Source of the DNA: an uncultured Candidatus Saccharibacteria bacterium
GTDB taxonomy: Bacteria; Patescibacteriota; Saccharimonadia; Saccharimonadales; JAGQNJ01
Assembly: GCA_964491925.1 (NCBI GenBank)
Contig: CAZBGZ010000002.1
Span: forward strand, 49,492-113,491
Length of the DNA stretch: 64,000 nt
Direction of reading: 5' to 3'
The translations under genes were made by a program, and so were the position numbers. Positions 5,267 to 50,782 of this stretch are shown here, piece after piece. The notes under the pieces were generated by a model. That model was not told the DNA's origin and did no database searches. It saw only the letters and a program-made list of their open reading frames with translations. Position 1 is the first letter of the stretch. Each line of letters starts with the position of its first letter.

Positions 5267-5653
5267 ATGAGCAGAGAAGATATGGGATGGATTACAGATA
5301 GAATACAACAGGTAGTATTTACTTCAGATATGTTACCTGGATCTATTCTAAAGATACACAGTCAAACTAATAGTGCCAAATTCATGACTCTCGAAGTACT
5401 TGGGTTATTTGAAGATACAGACCCATTAGTTGTTGTAAGGAGTGGCGGGGTAGAAGATTCTACCGGAACATGTACGGGTCTCTTGCTGGGATCGTTCGTA
5501 ACTGTTGGTAGGGTGGAAGAGCTTGAACCCGGTCATCTGGTACAGGGCAGCGACCTAGCAATAGAGTGTACCACTGGATATACGCGTGTTGAAACACTGA
5601 GAGGGCGAATGGAGCTAGTACCCCCAAAAACCCAGCCCATCCAGGCTGTATAA
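5267..5653 (+). CDS. hypothetical protein
   Basis: The track ORF begins at TTG 5228. The first ATG (MSREDMGW) at 5267 is preferred. Followed by a terminator-like hairpin. Confidence 0.45.
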   Translation: MSREDMGWITDRIQQVVFTSDMLPGSILKIHSQTNSAKFMTLEVLGLFEDTDPLVVVRSGGVEDSTGTCTGLLLGSFVTVGRVEELEPGHLVQGSDLAIECTTGYTRVETLRGRMELVPPKTQPIQAV

Positions 5654-5940: not shown

Positions 5941-7104
5941 ATGAGCCCAGAATCAGATCAAGCTAAAACGCCCAAAACTAGTAGCCGGCCCGAGCCAGCT
6001 GTCAATATCGCGCGAGCAAAACTTGACAAGCTATATGCATCCGAACCAATTGCCAAAGAAGAACTAAAATACACAAAACAGACAGACCCTTTAATTTCCA
6101 AACACCAAGCTTATATGTTAGGTCTCAGTAAATCTGGAAAGTCTTTGGCTGATATACAAACCGCCTGGCATGGATATTATGTGGCGTTGTCCGATAAAGA
6201 AAAACACGAAGTATGGCAAGAATTTTACGCCGAGCATGCCAAAAAAAGACCAGAAATAACGCCTGCAGTTGCCACCAAACAGCCAGAACTAGAACCAAAA
6301 CCAAACCACAAAAACGTAACCGATGTAAAAAAACGCATTTTGAGATCAGCAGAAGATAACCGCAGATACACTGCCAGAAAACAAAACATTCATTCAGTAG
6401 TCTTCGGCCTCGGCATGGGTTCACTAGTTATGTTCATTTTGTTATTTGGCTTTTTTAACGAAAGATTTATAGCGCCGTTCATTACTCCCAGTAGAACCGT
6501 CAGCTCAACACCCATAATCGTTGACCCTAATTCCAGTAGTGTTGGCCCCGAGTCAGAAGTAATTATTCCCAAGATTAACGTTGAAATACCGACGGTTTAT
6601 AATATTCCATATAATTCTAACCCTGATAAATTCGAAAAAAGTATTCAAACAGGCCTAGAGGGAGGGGTAGTACACTATTCAATAACTCCAGACCCAGGGC
6701 AAAAGGGCAATAGCGTTTTTGTTGGGCACTCTAGTAATAACATATTCAATAAGGGCAAATACAAATTTGCTTTTGTACTACTGAGCAAATTGGAAAAGGG
6801 CGATACATTTTACCTTACCAAGAATAAAGTACGCTATGCCTATAAAGTTTTCGAAAAGAAAATTGTAAACCCTAGCGATGTTTCTGTGCTCAAACCTACC
6901 AGTAAAACAGCCACGGCTACCTTAATAACCTGTGACCCGCCGGGCACATCATTGAACCGTCTAGTTGTTGTAGGAGAACAGATAAGCCCTGACCCGATAG
7001 AGAACAAAGCCAGCACAGCAACGGAGGCAAGCGCTTCAGAGCCGACAATTGTACCCGGCAATGCCGAAAGTTTATGGCAAAGAATCAAAAACCTAGTATT
7101 CTAG
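5941..7104 (+). CDS. sortase family transpeptidase with long N-terminal cytoplasmic extension
   Basis: 387 aa; TM helix near residues 160-185; C-terminal domain with VGHS and TLITCDP (TLxTC catalytic Cys motif). Confidence 0.85.
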   Translation: MSPESDQAKTPKTSSRPEPAVNIARAKLDKLYASEPIAKEELKYTKQTDPLISKHQAYMLGLSKSGKSLADIQTAWHGYYVALSDKEKHEVWQEFYAEHAKKRPEITPAVATKQPELEPKPNHKNVTDVKKRILRSAEDNRRYTARKQNIHSVVFGLGMGSLVMFILLFGFFNERFIAPFITPSRTVSSTPIIVDPNSSSVGPESEVIIPKINVEIPTVYNIPYNSNPDKFEKSIQTGLEGGVVHYSITPDPGQKGNSVFVGHSSNNIFNKGKYKFAFVLLSKLEKGDTFYLTKNKVRYAYKVFEKKIVNPSDVSVLKPTSKTATATLITCDPPGTSLNRLVVVGEQISPDPIENKASTATEASASEPTIVPGNAESLWQRIKNLVF

Positions 7105-18445: not shown

Positions 18446-18606
18446 GAAAAACCTCTCTATATTTATCGACTATATAATACTTTCGTAATATAGGCAACTT
18501 TAAGTTTCGAACTAGCACTTCCGACTGGATTGATTGCAAGCTGAACTAGGACACAACTTAGGGTCTCTGAAAAAACTCAATACATCCGACAAGACGATTA
18601 TCTAAT

Positions 18607-18683
18607 TGGTGATCCCGGCGGGATTCGAACCCGCGATCTCCTGGATGAGAACCAGGTGTCCTGAACCGCTAGACGACGGGACC
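18607..18683 (-). tRNA. tRNA-Glu (anticodon CTC)
   Basis: Minus strand GGTCCCGTCGTCTAGCGGTTCAGGACACCTGGTTCTCATCCAGGAGATCGCGGGTTCGAATCCCGCCGGGATCACCA. Anticodon loop TTCTCAT, CCA encoded. Confidence 0.9.
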
Positions 18684-18905
18684 TCGTCGATGTGTGATGT
18701 TTTAGTTTCTGGGCCAGCGACAAAATAAATTTGCTCGCTAACCCTAGAGACTAAAACAAGCCATCTTCCCTAAAATGCGCGAATCCTCTCGCACATTTGG
18801 GGAAATGCAACATAGATATTATGCATTGCATTTACAAAACATCCAAACCAAGACGCTTAGCGACTGTTTGGGTGTTTTAAAGGATAAACCGACCAAGCGG
18901 TAAGC

Positions 18906-18927
18906 CTTTTGTTATTTATAACAAAAG
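18906..18927. repeat. perfect 22-bp palindrome upstream of the histidine kinase gene (possible operator)
   Basis: CTTTTGTTAT-TT-ATAACAAAAG, flanked by CGACC...GGTCG and duplicated AAGCGG. Confidence 0.3.
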
Positions 18928-19055
18928 CAACAAGCGGGTCGTGTTTTGACGCAACAGGGGTATAACCTCAAAGCTTACTCTATTAAATTATTTTGAATTG
19001 CACTATACTAAAACGTAAGCAAAATAGGTGATAATAGGGTGGTAACTGATAGATA

Positions 19056-25644: not shown

Positions 25645-25787
25645 TGAAACTTTTACCCATTATAACTGAAAAGAGCATACAGAGGGTTAGAAGTGTTATT
25701 GTAGCACTTCGCAAGGAAATTTTTCTATGACAACTTGTTATGGAAATCGTGGAATTTCGTGGTCACTCAAGCATGACTCTGGGCACT

Positions 25788-25827
25788 AAAAAGAGCCTCC
25801 AGAGGGGGTGGGCACCGCTGGAAGCTC
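25788..25827 (-). terminator. intrinsic terminator of the 25.8-26.2 kb RNA unit
   Basis: Minus strand GAGCTTCCAG, 15-nt loop, CTGGAGGCTC (10 bp with one G-U), followed by TTTTT (25792-25788). Confidence 0.6.
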
Positions 25828-26196
25828 ATTTCAGAGGACAAAGCTTGCGCCTTGTCCCCAATACCCTTCAACCCACCCCAGCGAAACATCAGCGCTAAAC
25901 GAATAGTAAAAGCCTGTGTCTGTTGCCCGTAAACGGGAAGCAATCATTTAGACTCGCTTTGAATTGGGGCCTTTTCAGTGTTTACGAGAAACCGCTGAAA
26001 AAGGTTGCTAGTTAAAGGGGTTAGTCTGTTTTAGAGCGTAGCCGTGTTCACGGCAGTGCTTTCAATAGTGGAGGGTAACAACTAGAAGGAAGCGCGCTCT
26101 AAAACAATCTAACTATTAACCCTGGATAACCCAAGGTAATGCTAGAATAGGGGGTATAAGGTACGATAAGCTTTAATAAATTAAAACTTACAGGTT
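25788..26196 (-). ncRNA. unclassified ~400-nt highly structured RNA (promoter-to-terminator unit lacking a long ORF)
   Basis: No ORF of 60 aa or more in any frame across 25645-26260. A strong promoter and a terminator bracket about 405 nt. Stems seen by eye are 26020-26038/26095-26113 (19 bp, 2 mismatches), 25970-25978/25995-26004, 25926-25937 and 25836-25857. Confidence 0.5.
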
Positions 26197-26199
26197 GCC

Positions 26200-26228
26200 A
26201 TTTTATCAAAAACATTTCATTATGTCAA
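26200..26228 (-). promoter_or_regulatory. near-consensus sigma70 promoter TTGACA-17-TGaTAAAAT
   Basis: Minus strand TATTGACATAATGAAATGTTTTTGATAAAATGGCAACC. -35 at 26228-26223, exact 17-nt spacer, extended -10 at 26208-26200. Confidence 0.6.
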
Positions 26229-26260
26229 TACTAAAATAGATAGTTGATTAAATAACAAAA

Positions 26261-47880: not shown

Positions 47881-49143
47881 TTATTTTTTATTTGTCGAGC
47901 GGATTGCATTTGCGAACCATTTGGCGCTTGGTCTGATTTCTCTTTTCATTCCGTTAGACCGATCGACACTGACAAGGCCAAACTTCGGCCACCAGCCATA
48001 GGCCCATTCAAAATTGTCTAGCAAACTCCAGTGGAAGTACCCGGCGACTTGGACACCCTCTGACAGCGCACGCTCCATAGCTATTATGGATTCCTCGATC
48101 CACCATTGTCTGTACTGGTCTTGTTCATCCGCTACGCCGTTTTCGGTCACGATTATCGGTTTTCTATAATGCGCCCAGGCCCTGACTAGCAGAGGATACA
48201 ATCCCTCTGGCTCCATATACCAGCCCAGATCATTGACCGGTACTTTAGGGTTGTCTTTGTGAAAACCTTTGTAATAATCTGTAAAGTAATAATTAAATCC
48301 CACAAAATCTTGCTGTTTTCTGATTCTGTTCACAAACCACCAATTATACGTATATCTCATAAATTTGGTTACAACTTCATCGATAATATTATGAGGTCTC
48401 TTTGCCTGAATGTTCGATAATTGCCCTGCTATGCCCACATTGATTGTAGGGTTTGCATGTTTTAATATTCTATAAGCCCGCTTGTGGGCGCTAACTAGAT
48501 TGCGATATATCCAAACAGCCTTTGGCCAGTTTTTTTCTTGTGGCGGCCAAAAACCGGTACCATAACTGAAAACCGTATAAACGTTTGGCTCGTTTAATGT
48601 TATTACATATTGCAAGTCCTTGCCGTATTCATCAGCGATTTTCTGAACAAAACGATCAAAAAATTTCAAATTCTCTCTCTTGGCAAATCCACCTTTGTCC
48701 GTAAACCAGACCGGCATGGTCCAATGCCAAATGTTCAAGAAAGGCTCAAGACCTTTTTTTCTCAGCTCCTTTATATAGCCCCTGTAATATTCGACTTCTT
48801 TTTCATTCCATTTACCCTCAACTGGCTCTAGTCTGGACCACTCTATGCCGAACCTAAAAGCATTGAGGCTTAGACTTTTTGCAATGGCAAAATCTTCTTT
48901 ATAGCGTTTGTAGTGGTCTACCCCACGACCAGAAACATAGTTATCCGGCTTTTCAGCCTGGGCTTTTATCGTGTCCCATCCTGGCAAGTTGCTTAGATGT
49001 TGATGGGCTATCTGGGCGTGCTCTTTGGCAACTTCTAATTCCCAAACACTCCACTGGTTATGGTTACCGCCCTCGACCTGATGCGAGGCTGTGCTGGCCC
49101 CCCAAAAGAAATTCGGTGGAAATTGAGATTTATATTTATCCAT
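47881..49143 (-). CDS. GH1-family beta-glucosidase
   Basis: 420 aa; FFWGASTASHQVEGG, TLNEP (acid/base Glu), VTENG (nucleophile Glu). Confidence 0.9.
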   Translation of the reverse strand: MDKYKSQFPPNFFWGASTASHQVEGGNHNQWSVWELEVAKEHAQIAHQHLSNLPGWDTIKAQAEKPDNYVSGRGVDHYKRYKEDFAIAKSLSLNAFRFGIEWSRLEPVEGKWNEKEVEYYRGYIKELRKKGLEPFLNIWHWTMPVWFTDKGGFAKRENLKFFDRFVQKIADEYGKDLQYVITLNEPNVYTVFSYGTGFWPPQEKNWPKAVWIYRNLVSAHKRAYRILKHANPTINVGIAGQLSNIQAKRPHNIIDEVVTKFMRYTYNWWFVNRIRKQQDFVGFNYYFTDYYKGFHKDNPKVPVNDLGWYMEPEGLYPLLVRAWAHYRKPIIVTENGVADEQDQYRQWWIEESIIAMERALSEGVQVAGYFHWSLLDNFEWAYGWWPKFGLVSVDRSNGMKREIRPSAKWFANAIRSTNKK

Positions 49144-49154
49144 AAGCTATTTCT

Positions 49155-49163
49155 ATTCTATCA
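49155..49163 (-). promoter_or_regulatory. extended -10 element, short-leader spacing
   Basis: Minus strand TGATAGAAT; 11 nt to ATG at 49143. Confidence 0.45.
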
Positions 49164-49242
49164 CTACCCTTACGCGTTCTTTCTCAAAGAACCAAATCTC
49201 TTCATACTTTCTCCAGCAGCTGAGAAAGTATGCAAAGACGCC

Positions 49243-49401
49243 GCCCCGACTCAAACCACGTGATTTAGGTTTTGGTGATTTTTGGCGTGCCTGTGGAACG
49301 CAAGCGATCCGATTCAATTTTCTTGGTGTATGGAATCGGATTGGTCCTCGGCATTAATTCGCCAAAAATCACCAAAACCTAATCAGTGTTTGAGAGGGGT
49401 C
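49243..49401. repeat. ~160-nt long inverted repeat / hairpin (35-40 bp stem, 72-nt core with inner 9-bp stem)
   Basis: Left arm 49243-49287 pairs with right arm 49360-49401. There are 21 perfect bp (AGGTTTTGGTGATTTTTGGCG), then 5+2+7 more bp separated by three 1-nt bulges. Inner stem is ATCCGATTC (49307-49315) / GAATCGGAT (49333-49341). Confidence 0.65.
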
Positions 49402-49425
49402 TTTAATGTAACTACAAAATTAGCG

Positions 49426-49770
49426 TTATTTATTTAGGATTTCTATTTTTTGGATTTTGCCAGCTTTGACTGTTACGTACTCTTGGCCGGAGGTTTTTAT
49501 AACTTCACCGTTTGGCTTCTCTCCAACGAAGTCAAAATCAAACAAAATCACGCCTGGATCCATCTTTTTTACGGAATTAACACGCCATTGCAGAGATGAA
49601 AACTGACCATGAAACTTTCTTTGCATAGCAATAATGTCTCCACTGCCAATGTACTTACCCGTATTCTGCGAAATATATATCGTCGTATCCGTAAAAAGCT
49701 TTTCGATATTATCAAAATCACTCTCGTTAGAAAGCTCAAAGTAAAGTTTAGCTGTCTTGATTGCATCCAT
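49426..49770 (-). CDS. SnoaL/NTF2-like small protein
   Basis: 114 aa; size and alternating pattern fit an NTF2-like cone; weak call. Confidence 0.45.
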   Translation of the reverse strand: MDAIKTAKLYFELSNESDFDNIEKLFTDTTIYISQNTGKYIGSGDIIAMQRKFHGQFSSLQWRVNSVKKMDPGVILFDFDFVGEKPNGEVIKTSGQEYVTVKAGKIQKIEILNK

Positions 49771-49779
49771 ATGGATATT

Positions 49780-49788
49780 ATTGTAGCA
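49780..49788 (-). promoter_or_regulatory. extended -10 element, leaderless-type spacing
   Basis: Minus strand TGCTACAAT; 9 nt to ATG at 49770. Confidence 0.5.
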
Positions 49789-49837
49789 TTCTGCAATTAC
49801 GGGCTGGGCGTCTGTCTCCGCAGAGGTAGAGTCGTAA

Positions 49838-50470
49838 TTAACCCGGAATAATTTTGGATGACTTGCCGTTTATAACAAGTGCTTGTTCGTCGGATATCTC
49901 AACAACCTCATAACCTTCACATTTTAATGATTTACTAATCTTTTTAACTACACCGCCAAATTTTTCGTTGTCTATGTGCGGTACAACGACTTTTTCTGTA
50001 AGGTTTAGGCCTTCAATAATAACTTTAGGAGCATCCTTTGGGTTATCTGCATCCTCAAAATACTTTAGTGTTGGTCCAGCTACAATGGCACCTGCACTTC
50101 CGCCACCGTATACTAATCCAGACCGTACAAGGTCGTTGATAATTTTATCAGCGCCTACATCTTTCAAAATCCATCTCAGGTAAAAAGAATTGCCCCCACC
50201 GACCCAAACCACATCTTTACTTGCCAGTTTACTTATCAACATTGGCTGTTTATCTTTATACTTCCGTAGGTCAACAAGCTCTACTTCATAACCACAGGAT
50301 TTAATGGCTTCACGGTTTTCAACCACCCAATCGACAGTATCATCATGGTACACATCAGCAGCATTTTCTATCAATGCTAATTTAATATCTTTCGCTGGCT
50401 TGCCAACGAGTTCAATGAAAGCATCCTCTTGCTCTCTTGAAATTGCCATTGAAGAAAGAAAAAGTTTCAT
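49838..50470 (-). CDS. peptidase S51 (dipeptidase E-like) family
   Basis: 210 aa; VWVGGGNSFYL and GGSAGAIVAG motifs. Confidence 0.72.
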   Translation of the reverse strand: MKLFLSSMAISREQEDAFIELVGKPAKDIKLALIENAADVYHDDTVDWVVENREAIKSCGYEVELVDLRKYKDKQPMLISKLASKDVVWVGGGNSFYLRWILKDVGADKIINDLVRSGLVYGGGSAGAIVAGPTLKYFEDADNPKDAPKVIIEGLNLTEKVVVPHIDNEKFGGVVKKISKSLKCEGYEVVEISDEQALVINGKSSKIIPG

Positions 50471-50479
50471 ATTAGCTTA

Positions 50480-50488
50480 ATTGTAGCA
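50480..50488 (-). promoter_or_regulatory. extended -10 element, leaderless-type spacing
   Basis: Minus strand TGCTACAAT; 9 nt to ATG at 50470. Confidence 0.5.
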
Positions 50489-50562
50489 TTTTGCCTTTCT
50501 GGGTTTGCGTAGCGTTTGTTATGAAGTGTCCCGTAGGGACATTTTACAAATAGAGTCGCCTA

Positions 50563-50704
50563 TGTTCAGCCCTGAGCAGATATTGTGAAAAGTAGGCGCC
50601 CTTGGGCGCGAGGATTGTTTGAGCTGAAAAACTGCTGTTAGCAGGTTTTCAGTGAGTTCCGGAGCGAGCCTACTTTTTATCAACAGATGCGTCAAGACTG
50701 AACA
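50563..50704. ncRNA. unclassified ~140-nt multi-stem element (strand undetermined)
   Basis: Closing stem TGTTCAG (50563-69)/CTGAACA (50698-704); 11-bp stem 50587-97/50668-78; 12-bp hairpin 50624-35/50641-52 with one mismatch; GC hairpin near 50596-50609. Confidence 0.3.
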
Positions 50705-50782
50705 GCGAGCGCGGCACTTTTGGTTACTTTTCTTGCTGCAGAGGAAAGTAATAAGAAACGGGTTCTCTTAAAAAGAGCTAAA

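Follow-up and report, generated by a model that had tools for sequence, protein, structure and literature searches.

The 64,000-nt stretch of DNA considered here (the window) comes from contig CAZBGZ010000002.1 of an uncultured Candidatus Saccharibacteria bacterium and carries, in a 282-nt spacer between two minus-strand genes, a large structured element that we call E1. Read along the minus strand, the genes of this region are PIF1 helicase, DNA_alkylation, a 312-nt spacer, Peptidase_S51 (PepS51), SnoaL_2, the 282-nt spacer, GH1, mraZ, and rsmH, and those homologues of GH1 and SnoaL that bear a source name are, among the best matches, from Patescibacteria or Candidatus Saccharibacteria. Saccharibacteria, which are minute parasites, and other members of the Candidate Phyla Radiation (CPR) have tiny genomes with very little non-coding DNA, and to our knowledge almost nothing is known of their regulatory RNAs or mobile elements. 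E1 starts about 25 nt past the SnoaL stop codon and ends just ahead of the extended −10 box of GH1. The genes around it and its parts are as follows.

47881-49143, minus strand: GH1, the gene on one side of the 282-nt spacer
49426-49770, minus strand: SnoaL_2, the gene on the other side
49838-50470, minus strand: Peptidase_S51, upstream of SnoaL_2
49244-49399, minus strand: E1 big-hairpin module, a 39-bp irregular helix with a 72-nt tip (RNAfold, inverted-repeat scan)
49288-49359, minus strand: conserved tip (core), comprising AAUUAAUGCCGAGGACCAAUC, the P4 hairpin and GAUCGCUUGCGUUCCACAGGCA, with the helices UGCC/GGCA and GGA/UCC
49307-49341, minus strand: P4, a 9-bp hairpin AUCCGAUUC/GAAUCGGAU (49307-49315 with 49333-49341) with a 17-nt A-rich loop
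49233-49243, minus strand: single-stranded linker CGGCGUCUUUG, which matches the family motif GGCACUUUUGC in alignments and in a hidden Markov model (HMM) of the 3′ module
49203-49232, minus strand: hairpin 2, a perfect 11-bp stem with the conserved UACUUU(C/U)...(G/A)AAAGUA; first half of a gene-end module
49176-49192, minus strand: hairpin 3, a 7-bp stem GUUCUUU/AAAGAAC; second half of the gene-end module

On the minus strand, RNAfold builds the E1 helix from segments of 21, 5, 2, 7, and 4 bp. The 21-bp run AGGUUUUGGUGAUUUUUGGCG pairs 49380-49360 with 49287-49267; three single-nucleotide bulges all fall on the left arm of the plus strand, which is the 3′ arm of the RNA; and the outermost 4 bp, CCCC/GGGG (49396-49399 with 49244-49247), lie past a 1x2 internal loop. 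A preliminary description of this DNA had reported a giant hairpin of 21 bp followed by 14 more with three left-arm bulges, together with the inner 9-bp stem, the perfect 11-bp hairpin, the 7-bp hairpin, and the flanking SnoaL_2 and GH1 genes, and all of these were recovered where it had placed them, the giant hairpin by both RNAfold and the inverted-repeat scan. Its figure of 21 bp is right for the RNAfold register but is not the longest perfect run, as an alternative register found by the inverted-repeat scan joins 23 perfect bp (49265-49287 with 49360-49382, 100% complementary, 72 nt apart). The further statement that a stem of this length lies beyond chance is borne out by the folding energy of the 282-nt spacer, which is −109.9 kcal/mol on the minus and −101.4 kcal/mol on the plus strand, corresponding to z = −8.3 and −8.5, respectively. 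None of 200 dinucleotide shuffles folded as well, and 0.00 chance matches of the 23-mer arm are expected in the window.

E1 is single-copy in the 64-kb window but belongs to a dispersed family. Fourteen homologous copies were found at relatives' loci in five other Saccharibacteria assemblies by combining a pattern scan with HMM and covariance model (CM) searches; such loci are designated by L-numbers below, and as the genomes are represented by 8-kb pieces, copy counts per genome are minimum values. A pattern built from the conserved tip positions returned 47 matches in a scan of one genome per GTDB species, 39 of which were set aside as chance by the name of the organism (unrelated and mostly high-GC-looking lineages), with L055 alone also folded. 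The genuine matches, namely three in DAISWO01 (Ca. Saccharibacteria), two in JAUIBQ01, one in JAUHXF01, and two in CAZEED01 (uncultured Saccharibacteria), all share the same folded architecture. Metagenome contigs scanned with a stricter core pattern yielded one contig, L063, and the HMM and CM searches added a second L063 copy, the diverged L046b (the fourth in DAISWO01), and the rearranged L045b. Paired copies occur on the single contigs JAUIBQ010000001, CAZEED010000005, and L063 (two each). The preliminary description had proposed copy number as a check and had allowed for a fortuitous palindrome; with at least three copies in one relative's assembly and a dispersed, multi-copy family across related genomes, that possibility is excluded.

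Family elements measure about 235-250 nt and keep company with unrelated genes, among them topA, ksgA, tpiA/pgk, radC, helicases, and an AAA_15 ATPase; compared for an empty site near topA, L016 and the window differ over the entire interval. All nine independent loci place the element between the end of one gene and the start of the next. At seven of them it is antisense to two co-directional neighbours, and at the remaining two, including the window, it is co-directional with them. Rfam 15 gave no match to the window element at gathering thresholds and noise alone at E <= 10 (13-22 bits, from miRNA, DicF, and PYLIS models), and it gave nothing at the element coordinates of eight relatives' loci or in the second element, E2, described below; the cmscan check put forward in the preliminary description thus found no family. 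A literature search on non-coding RNAs (ncRNAs), hairpins, and miniature inverted-repeat transposable elements (MITEs) in Saccharibacteria or Patescibacteria found nothing relevant, and the family is apparently undescribed, being absent from Rfam 15 and the searchable literature. BLASTN against phage and plasmid collections returned no match, and scans of IMG/VR with a stem 19-mer and with core patterns returned nothing or four chance-like matches, three of them at 58-59% GC and none with the family's long hairpin. The IMG/VR result disfavours the idea that a stem arm serves as a phage-matching guide or spacer.

The pattern of substitution among these copies is informative. Across an alignment of 12 copies, the RNAalifold consensus comprises 47 pairs, of which 33 have changes on both sides. 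Paired cells amount to 91.3%, as compared to 34-48% when the partners are slid by 1-3 columns, and double-change cells number 129, as compared to 22-34 when slid; none of 500 shuffles matched the observed pairing values, with the caveat that these tests ignore phylogeny. The long-helix arms have a mean pairwise identity of 39%, which is near random, and the two sides of the tip have 82% and 89%. Helix and tip together span 123-128 nt in each of the 12 copies. Within the tip, CGCUUGCGUU is conserved in 11 of the 12 aligned copies, and the consensus reads GCCGAGGAC...CGCUUGCGUUCCRCAGGCAC; the tip helix GGA/UCC becomes AAA/UUU in L011 and L016, and seven of the nine P4 pairs are compensatory across the family. 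The three bulges of the long helix hold their positions in type A copies (window, L003, L046a, L041) and not in type B. This pattern marks a fold under constraint, in which the apex is sequence-specific and the spacer helix is held to a fixed length; it is not that of neutrally decaying transposon copies.

Some other identities for the conserved tip were considered and rejected. A 29-codon open reading frame (ORF) spans the tip in type A copies, but type B copies read the conserved block in a different frame and L062 has a truncated ORF; since the block is conserved without a constant frame across subtypes, it is not coding. Words resembling CUGAUGA and AACACUG/AAUGCC brought to mind hammerhead, twister, box C/D, and K-turn motifs, for which the order of elements is unfit by eye and Rfam is negative. 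A retron ncRNA was dismissed for want of an adjacent reverse transcriptase.

At the SnoaL locus itself, the element persists downstream of SnoaL across orthologues of 69-100% protein identity. Loci L003-L006, whose GH1 is 97% identical, keep the spacer; compared with the window, their long stem shows a G:C to A:U swap and their hairpin 2 a C:G to U:A swap, and their hairpin 3 has a wholly different sequence in the same place. In L011 (SnoaL about 77% identical), SnoaL is followed by an equally large hairpin whose arms are entirely different and whose tip is recognisably similar, and L013 (SnoaL 69%) has the start of the same element, followed by the end of the contig. SnoaL and the spacer are both missing from L007-L009, where GH1 identity is about 80%. 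Three independent metagenome contigs (L010, L012, and L013) terminate within or just before the element downstream of SnoaL.

The 3′ part of the element has a wider distribution. An HMM of the linker GGCACUUUUGC and hairpin 2 (UACUUUU-N12-AAAAGUA) also matches the plus strand of the window at 50705-50754, and in L003 and L011 it matches the corresponding spacers. In L068, the GH1 of which falls into L003's 90% cluster, an SDR gene occupies the slot, and SnoaL, E2, and the big hairpin are all missing; hairpin 2, hairpin 3, and the GH1 promoter are retained, with GTTCTTGGGAAGAAC in the place of hairpin 3, and the stretch of L068 that is homologous to the window starts exactly at window position 49232, where hairpin 2 has its edge. 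Hairpins 2 and 3 also occur alone, directly after stop codons and with T-runs, in L046 and L068. Because L068 and the stand-alone copies carry them without the big hairpin, hairpins 2 and 3 make up a gene-end module in their own right, conserved in sequence and separable from the giant hairpin, which is a distinct module placed ahead of them. This revises the earlier statement that the small hairpins are not U-tract terminators: it stands for the window, where a consensus scan of both strands over 48900-49800 called neither terminator-like nor sigma-70-like sites, but elsewhere the same hairpins form a conserved gene-end module that has T-runs in other copies. By the same token, the notion that the shared 3′ module represents the terminal inverted repeats of a composite transposon was abandoned, as L068 and the stand-alone copies show it to be a general gene-end unit.

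Stand-alone hairpins of the form TACTTT(T)-N7-9-(A)AAAGTA follow genes at L046 5142-5162 and 6552-6572 and at L045 5470-5488, 6577-6595, and 6841-6859; each of those in L046 has a second small hairpin (AGCTCGAGCT or AGCTCGGGCT) and then a T-run behind it. Such hairpins look like a REP-like (repetitive extragenic palindromic), sequence-conserved gene-end signal. Hairpin 3 is replaced by other GC-rich hairpins in other copies of the element. The hairpin 3 of E1 in the window (GGTTCTTTGAGAAAGAAC) is closer to that of E2 in L003 (GGTTCTTCGAAAAAGAAC) than to that of E1 in L003 (GCGAGCTTTAGCTCGC; L003 4068-4100 and 4955-4975), and hairpin 3 of L068 is of the window type; this resemblance suggests that recombination or conversion between modules may have taken place.

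The 312-nt spacer on the far side of PepS51 holds the second, inverted element, which the preliminary description had overlooked.

50471-50782, plus strand: E2, a second, diverged element, inverted relative to E1 (3′-module nhmmer E = 5.7e-11; fold z = −4.2)
50564-50703, plus strand: E2 big hairpin, 140 nt, core GCGAGGAUUG...GAGUUCCGGAGCG
50711-50723, plus strand: E2 linker GCGGCACUUUUGG, the same linker as in E1
50724-50751, plus strand: E2 hairpin 2, the same module as in E1
50765-50777, plus strand: E2 hairpin 3, a small hairpin
49426-50470, minus strand: cargo between E1 and E2, SnoaL_2 and Peptidase_S51

The tip motifs of E2 are related to those of E1 (GCGAGGA...GUUCCGGAGCG), and E2 has orthologues in L003 and L011. 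The covariance model of the E1 family (CM R1) did not detect the E2 big hairpin, which is therefore at best a distant relative of that of E1, recognised by shared architecture and short motifs alone. The cargo is bracketed by E1 and E2 in the window, L003, and L011, the two elements lying in opposite orientation with their 5′ ends inward. The slot between DNA_alkylation and GH1 exists in at least four states: empty, with a 25-nt gap (L007); filled by the SDR gene (L068); filled by E2, SnoaL, and E1 (L003-L006 and L011); or filled by E2, PepS51, SnoaL, and E1 (the window). PepS51 and its own TGCTACAAT box, present in the window and absent from L003-L006, amount to a strain-level gain or loss of a single gene within the bracket. 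Elsewhere, an intact copy (1380-1680, minus) and the rearranged inverted copy (6380-6760, plus) of L045 bracket RadC, a MutH/Sau3AI-like nuclease, a C5 DNA methylase, and a NERD nuclease; the motif AGCAAAT(T/A)ATGTATTTG(C/T)ACAGATTCCT occurs three times in that locus, including at 5489-5530. Most copies of the family are solo rather than paired, and only two such elements are present in 64 kb, leaving most gene junctions without one. The 20 window ORFs scanned and the genes called in relatives' loci include no transposase, integrase, HUH protein, or reverse transcriptase. The search for target-site duplications, another check named in the preliminary description, found none among 13 copies: shared flank words were inconsistent in length and position and mostly matched by shuffles.

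Three promoter-like boxes accompany the genes of this slot.

49155-49163, minus strand: extended −10-like box TGATAGAAT, 11 nt before the GH1 ATG, in the flank outside the element
49780-49788, minus strand: TGCTACAAT box preceding SnoaL_2
50480-50488, minus strand: TGCTACAAT box preceding Peptidase_S51

The TGATAGAAT box is the probable GH1 promoter, judging from sequence, and boxes orthologous to it (TGCTACAAT, TGATACAAT, and TGGTAGAAT) are found in L007-L009 and L068. A near-identical promoter box is duplicated ahead of PepS51 and of SnoaL. Genes of the clade (window, L007-L009, L013, L068) have a TGnTAnAAT box, often TGCTACAAT, 9-12 nt before the ATG and no Shine-Dalgarno sequence; this spacing suggests that their mRNAs may be leaderless or have a very short leader.

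Which strand, then, is the one that folds? On the sense strand, which is the minus strand in the window, consensus pairs include 24 G-U/U-G as compared to 7 A-C/C-A (binomial p about 0.003, a value that ignores relatedness). The sense fold is the more stable in 13 of 16 copies. CM R1 scores the window copy (49261-49386) at 129.9 bits on the minus strand and 22.9 bits on the plus strand, and family copies as a whole at 94-131 bits in the sense orientation and 22.9-31 bits on the complement. A U-run follows hairpin 3 on the sense strand of L024, L044, L016, and L063a; the type B hairpin 3 is GC-rich in several of the copies with U-runs, and L024 is antisense to both neighbours, an arrangement that fits an independent transcription unit. 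Taken together, the strand evidence favours a single-stranded fold of the minus strand, for which RNA is the simplest reading and single-stranded DNA is compatible. A TTGTAG upstream of several copies was entertained as a REP-like GTAG signal and discarded, since in E2 and L016 it is the reverse complement of the neighbour's TGCTACAAT promoter.

Considering the observed structure, family, covariation, tip conservation, strand asymmetry, and mosaic organisation, the reading that we prefer, with a confidence that stops a little short of even, is that E1 and its homologues constitute, in one clade of Candidatus Saccharibacteria, a new family of structured, probably RNA-level elements, in which a partner would recognise a conserved apical motif held out by a helix of fixed length, with a reusable terminator-like module behind it. 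Given that both the shape and the tip sequence have been kept, the element is probably functional, most likely as RNA; an element of about 240 nt that is present in several copies per tiny genome with constrained shape, length, and tip is unlikely to be junk. The minus strand of the window would give rise to a folded RNA whose 39-bp helix, fixed in length and free in sequence, holds out the conserved tip, composed of an asymmetric internal loop and a small hairpin. The tip would be the putative binding site of a conserved partner, most likely a protein, and the long duplex may act as a rigid spacer and as a likely substrate of RNase III or of a double-stranded RNA-binding protein. The linker and the two 3′ hairpins that follow would then end the transcript and insulate the GH1 promoter that comes next. 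As no promoter-like box precedes the window element, its RNA would most likely be made at the 3′ end of the SnoaL transcript, by read-through. Other copies, antisense to their neighbours and furnished with their own downstream hairpin and T-run, are arranged as independent small-RNA genes would be.

Several observations weigh against this RNA-level reading and lead naturally to its chief rival. The bias between the strands is of moderate size and becomes weak when the long helix is taken by itself (12 G-U as compared to 6 A-C); moreover, G-T is the best-tolerated mismatch in single-stranded DNA hairpins, so that the asymmetry is also compatible with a role at the DNA level. No consistent promoter lies upstream of the copies, where scattered TAnnnT boxes were noted by eye and none by the window scan. 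The element has been gained and lost together with accessory genes. L011 and L016 are near-identical paralogues in one genome (85% mean column identity including flanks), and the mosaic subtypes and the rearranged L045b are what a spreading or recombining DNA repeat would leave behind. Contig ends at the element are consistent with assembly breaks at a repeated or foldback sequence. Alternatively, therefore, the family may be a mobile or recombination element acting as folded single-stranded DNA or as a cruciform, the tip of which is read by a recombinase or transposase encoded elsewhere, with inverted pairs marking the ends of cassettes; E2-PepS51-SnoaL-E1 cassettes would be inserted, exchanged, or lost as units, by analogy with attC sites, IS200/IS605 ends, and mobile insertion cassettes. 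We regard this as unlikely, yet as an alternative to be taken seriously. It accounts well for a multi-copy family dispersed in variable regions, for the inverted pairs around the cargo in the window, L003, and L011 and around the nuclease and methylase genes of L045, and for a DNA_alkylation-GH1 slot that is empty, SDR-filled, or occupied by SnoaL with or without PepS51 together with both elements. The same holds for paralogues that are near-identical within one genome or, like the type shared by L024 and L044, sit at different loci in different genomes, and for type A bulges fixed in position like the extrahelical bases of attC. It is, however, at odds with the lack of target-site duplications, with termini that are not mutual inverted repeats, with the predominance of solo copies, and with the lack of any integrase, transposase, HUH protein, or reverse transcriptase in the 20 window ORFs or the relatives' called genes. 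Conservation is highest at the hairpin tip rather than at the ends, the attC core sites RYYYAAC/GTTRRRY are missing (most copies have GCTTGAG), the element has been kept at the SnoaL locus over a long divergence, and the outer module, being a general gene-end unit that also stands alone, weakens its reading as a terminal repeat. A bolder proposal combines both lines: the elements could be recognition sites of a new cassette-exchange system, in which a conserved apical "address" (in single-stranded DNA, or in RNA guides or scaffolds) marks the borders of accessory and defence cassettes for a dedicated putative recombinase or ribonucleoprotein to insert or swap, in parallel to integrons yet unrelated to attC/IntI; in a milder version, they would be new, abundant, ribonucleoprotein-forming small RNAs of this CPR clade. 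This we offer as speculation with a slim chance of being right.

It is also conceivable, though we think it improbable, that the element is a purely cis-acting transcript boundary similar to REP sequences and bacterial interspersed mosaic elements (BIMEs), namely a very stable hairpin of the 3′ untranslated region that shields transcripts from 3′ exonucleases, halts or processes read-through, or both, with no partner in trans, the family being copies of a useful punctuation mark between tightly packed, leaderless units. Such a role would suit the position of the element between a gene end and the next gene start at nine of nine independent loci, and particularly in the window, where it runs from about 25 nt after the SnoaL stop up to the extended −10 box of GH1; it would also suit hairpins 2 and 3 standing alone after stop codons with T-runs (L046, L068), a mosaic organisation like that of BIMEs in E. 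coli, and the good folding of both strands. Punctuation, however, requires neither the invariant asymmetric tip (CGCUUGCGUU in 11 of 12 copies) nor a fixed 123-128 nt. At seven of nine loci the element is antisense to both neighbours, whose mRNAs would then carry the complement, scoring 22.9-31 bits instead of 94-131, and most junctions in the genome do without the element, with two in 64 kb. Finally, the covariance models may have missed a diverged member of a known RNA family such as 6S RNA, Y RNA, signal recognition particle RNA, or a retron ncRNA, which we consider very improbable indeed. A long irregular hairpin with a conserved internal loop, about 160 nt in size and followed by 3′ hairpins, is superficially like 6S or Y RNA, and CPR sequences are often too diverged for existing RNA models. 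Yet there is no Rfam 15 match beyond noise at E <= 10 in the window element, E2, or eight relatives' loci, several copies per roughly 1-Mb genome are unlike a housekeeping RNA, and neither rsr nor a reverse transcriptase nor any other signature partner gene lies next to it.

If the RNA-level reading holds, the family would be a new candidate class of ribonucleoprotein or regulatory RNA for a major uncultured lineage; if it is instead a DNA site, it would point to the means by which accessory and defence genes are shuffled in these epibionts. CM R1 provides a handle for annotating the family, which may explain why contigs break inside the element in several metagenome assemblies. Two further spacers of the window are of interest. 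A 616-nt gene-free stretch at 25645-26260 has a z of about −4 to −6 on both strands, a 19-nt inverted repeat that is 89% complementary (26020-26038 with 26095-26113), no Rfam family, and, on the plus strand at 26011-26121, a weak CM R1 match (14.4 bits, E = 0.18); this stretch could be a further structured RNA not yet annotated. A 610-nt spacer at 18446-19055, surrounding a tRNA (18610-18683), has z = −7.3 and −4.9, with a 16-nt inverted repeat (18698-18713 with 18743-18758) beside the tRNA.

How does this family compare to known systems? Its closest kin in behaviour are the REP/BIME and ERIC repeats of Enterobacteria, Correia/NEMIS of Neisseria, RUP/BOX of Streptococcus, and bcr1 of the Bacillus cereus group, which are likewise dispersed, intergenic, and found in either orientation, with strong hairpin potential, mosaic modules, and sites at gene ends and the borders of variable regions. 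Compensatory changes suggesting RNA-level constraint have been reported for some of them, such as bcr1 and ERIC. In contrast to these repeats, the part most conserved here is the apical tip, the arms are 39% identical, and the helix length is fixed; there are no terminal inverted repeats, no TA or other duplications, no consistent GTAG signature, and no sequence similarity, and the host belongs to the CPR and has a genome of roughly 1 Mb. REPs and REPINs are short (20-40 nt) conserved palindromes, often in inverted pairs and tied to a RAYT transposase. Hairpin 2 (TACTTT-N-AAAGTA, about 30 nt) behaves like a REP in its conserved stem and in its place at gene ends, where it also occurs alone; the big hairpin, with arms that are not conserved, does not.

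MITEs share with the family a size class of about 240 bp, foldback potential, assembly breaks, near-identical paralogues in one genome, and dispersed copies, of which there are at least three in DAISWO01 plus the diverged L046b as a fourth, and two each on three other contigs. The preliminary description had offered three options for the element, namely a MITE-like element, a dsRNA-forming or processing element, and a protein-bound cruciform, and it was correct in allowing for a dispersed repeat family, but the MITE label itself does not fit an internal inverted repeat without target-site duplication, with no transposase in the 20 window ORFs, and with covarying stems and a conserved tip. The substitution pattern is structured rather than neutral, no related transposase is present in the sequence examined, and terminal inverted repeats are missing: the alignment of L011 and L016 places the two ends of the element at GGGCAT... 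and ...GCTYGCAAGAA, with the long inverted repeat internal and the 3′ hairpins outside it. Integron attC sites resemble the family in being imperfect palindromes just 3′ of accessory ORFs, in keeping structure while sequence varies, in the positioned bulges within a subtype, and in the tie to cassette-like variable slots. However, attC sites are 57-141 nt long with no conserved centre, as opposed to a hairpin of 156 nt with a conserved central core; the attC core sites are not matched, the window having CTCAAAC/GTTTGAG (5/7 each) and L003, L046, and L041 having GCTTGAG without GTT; and there is no co-oriented array of ORFs and attC sites with intI, as orientations are mixed and most copies solo, E1 and E2 point in opposite directions, PepS51 lacks an element, and no integrase is encoded in the ORFs scanned.

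Among RNAs, 6S and Y RNA offer the likeness of a long irregular closing helix of constrained length and covarying sequence with a conserved internal loop, and more than one paralogue of either per genome is possible. The tip of E1 is unlike the 6S central bubble or the Ro-binding helix, however, with no Rfam match, more copies than expected, variable genes adjoining, and no partner gene nearby. Intrinsic terminators share the site right after a stop codon and, in several copies, the GC-rich hairpin 3 and U-runs, yet the window copy has no U-tract, hairpin 2 is AU-rich and sequence-conserved, and a 156-nt hairpin is far oversized. The hallmarks of structured ncRNAs in general, compensatory substitutions and strand asymmetry, are both present, in tests that ignore phylogeny and with which single-stranded DNA folding is compatible. 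In kind, then, the family is like known structured intergenic repeats; what is new is the conserved apex, the free arms, the fixed length, the coupling to a gene-end module, and the occurrence in the CPR.

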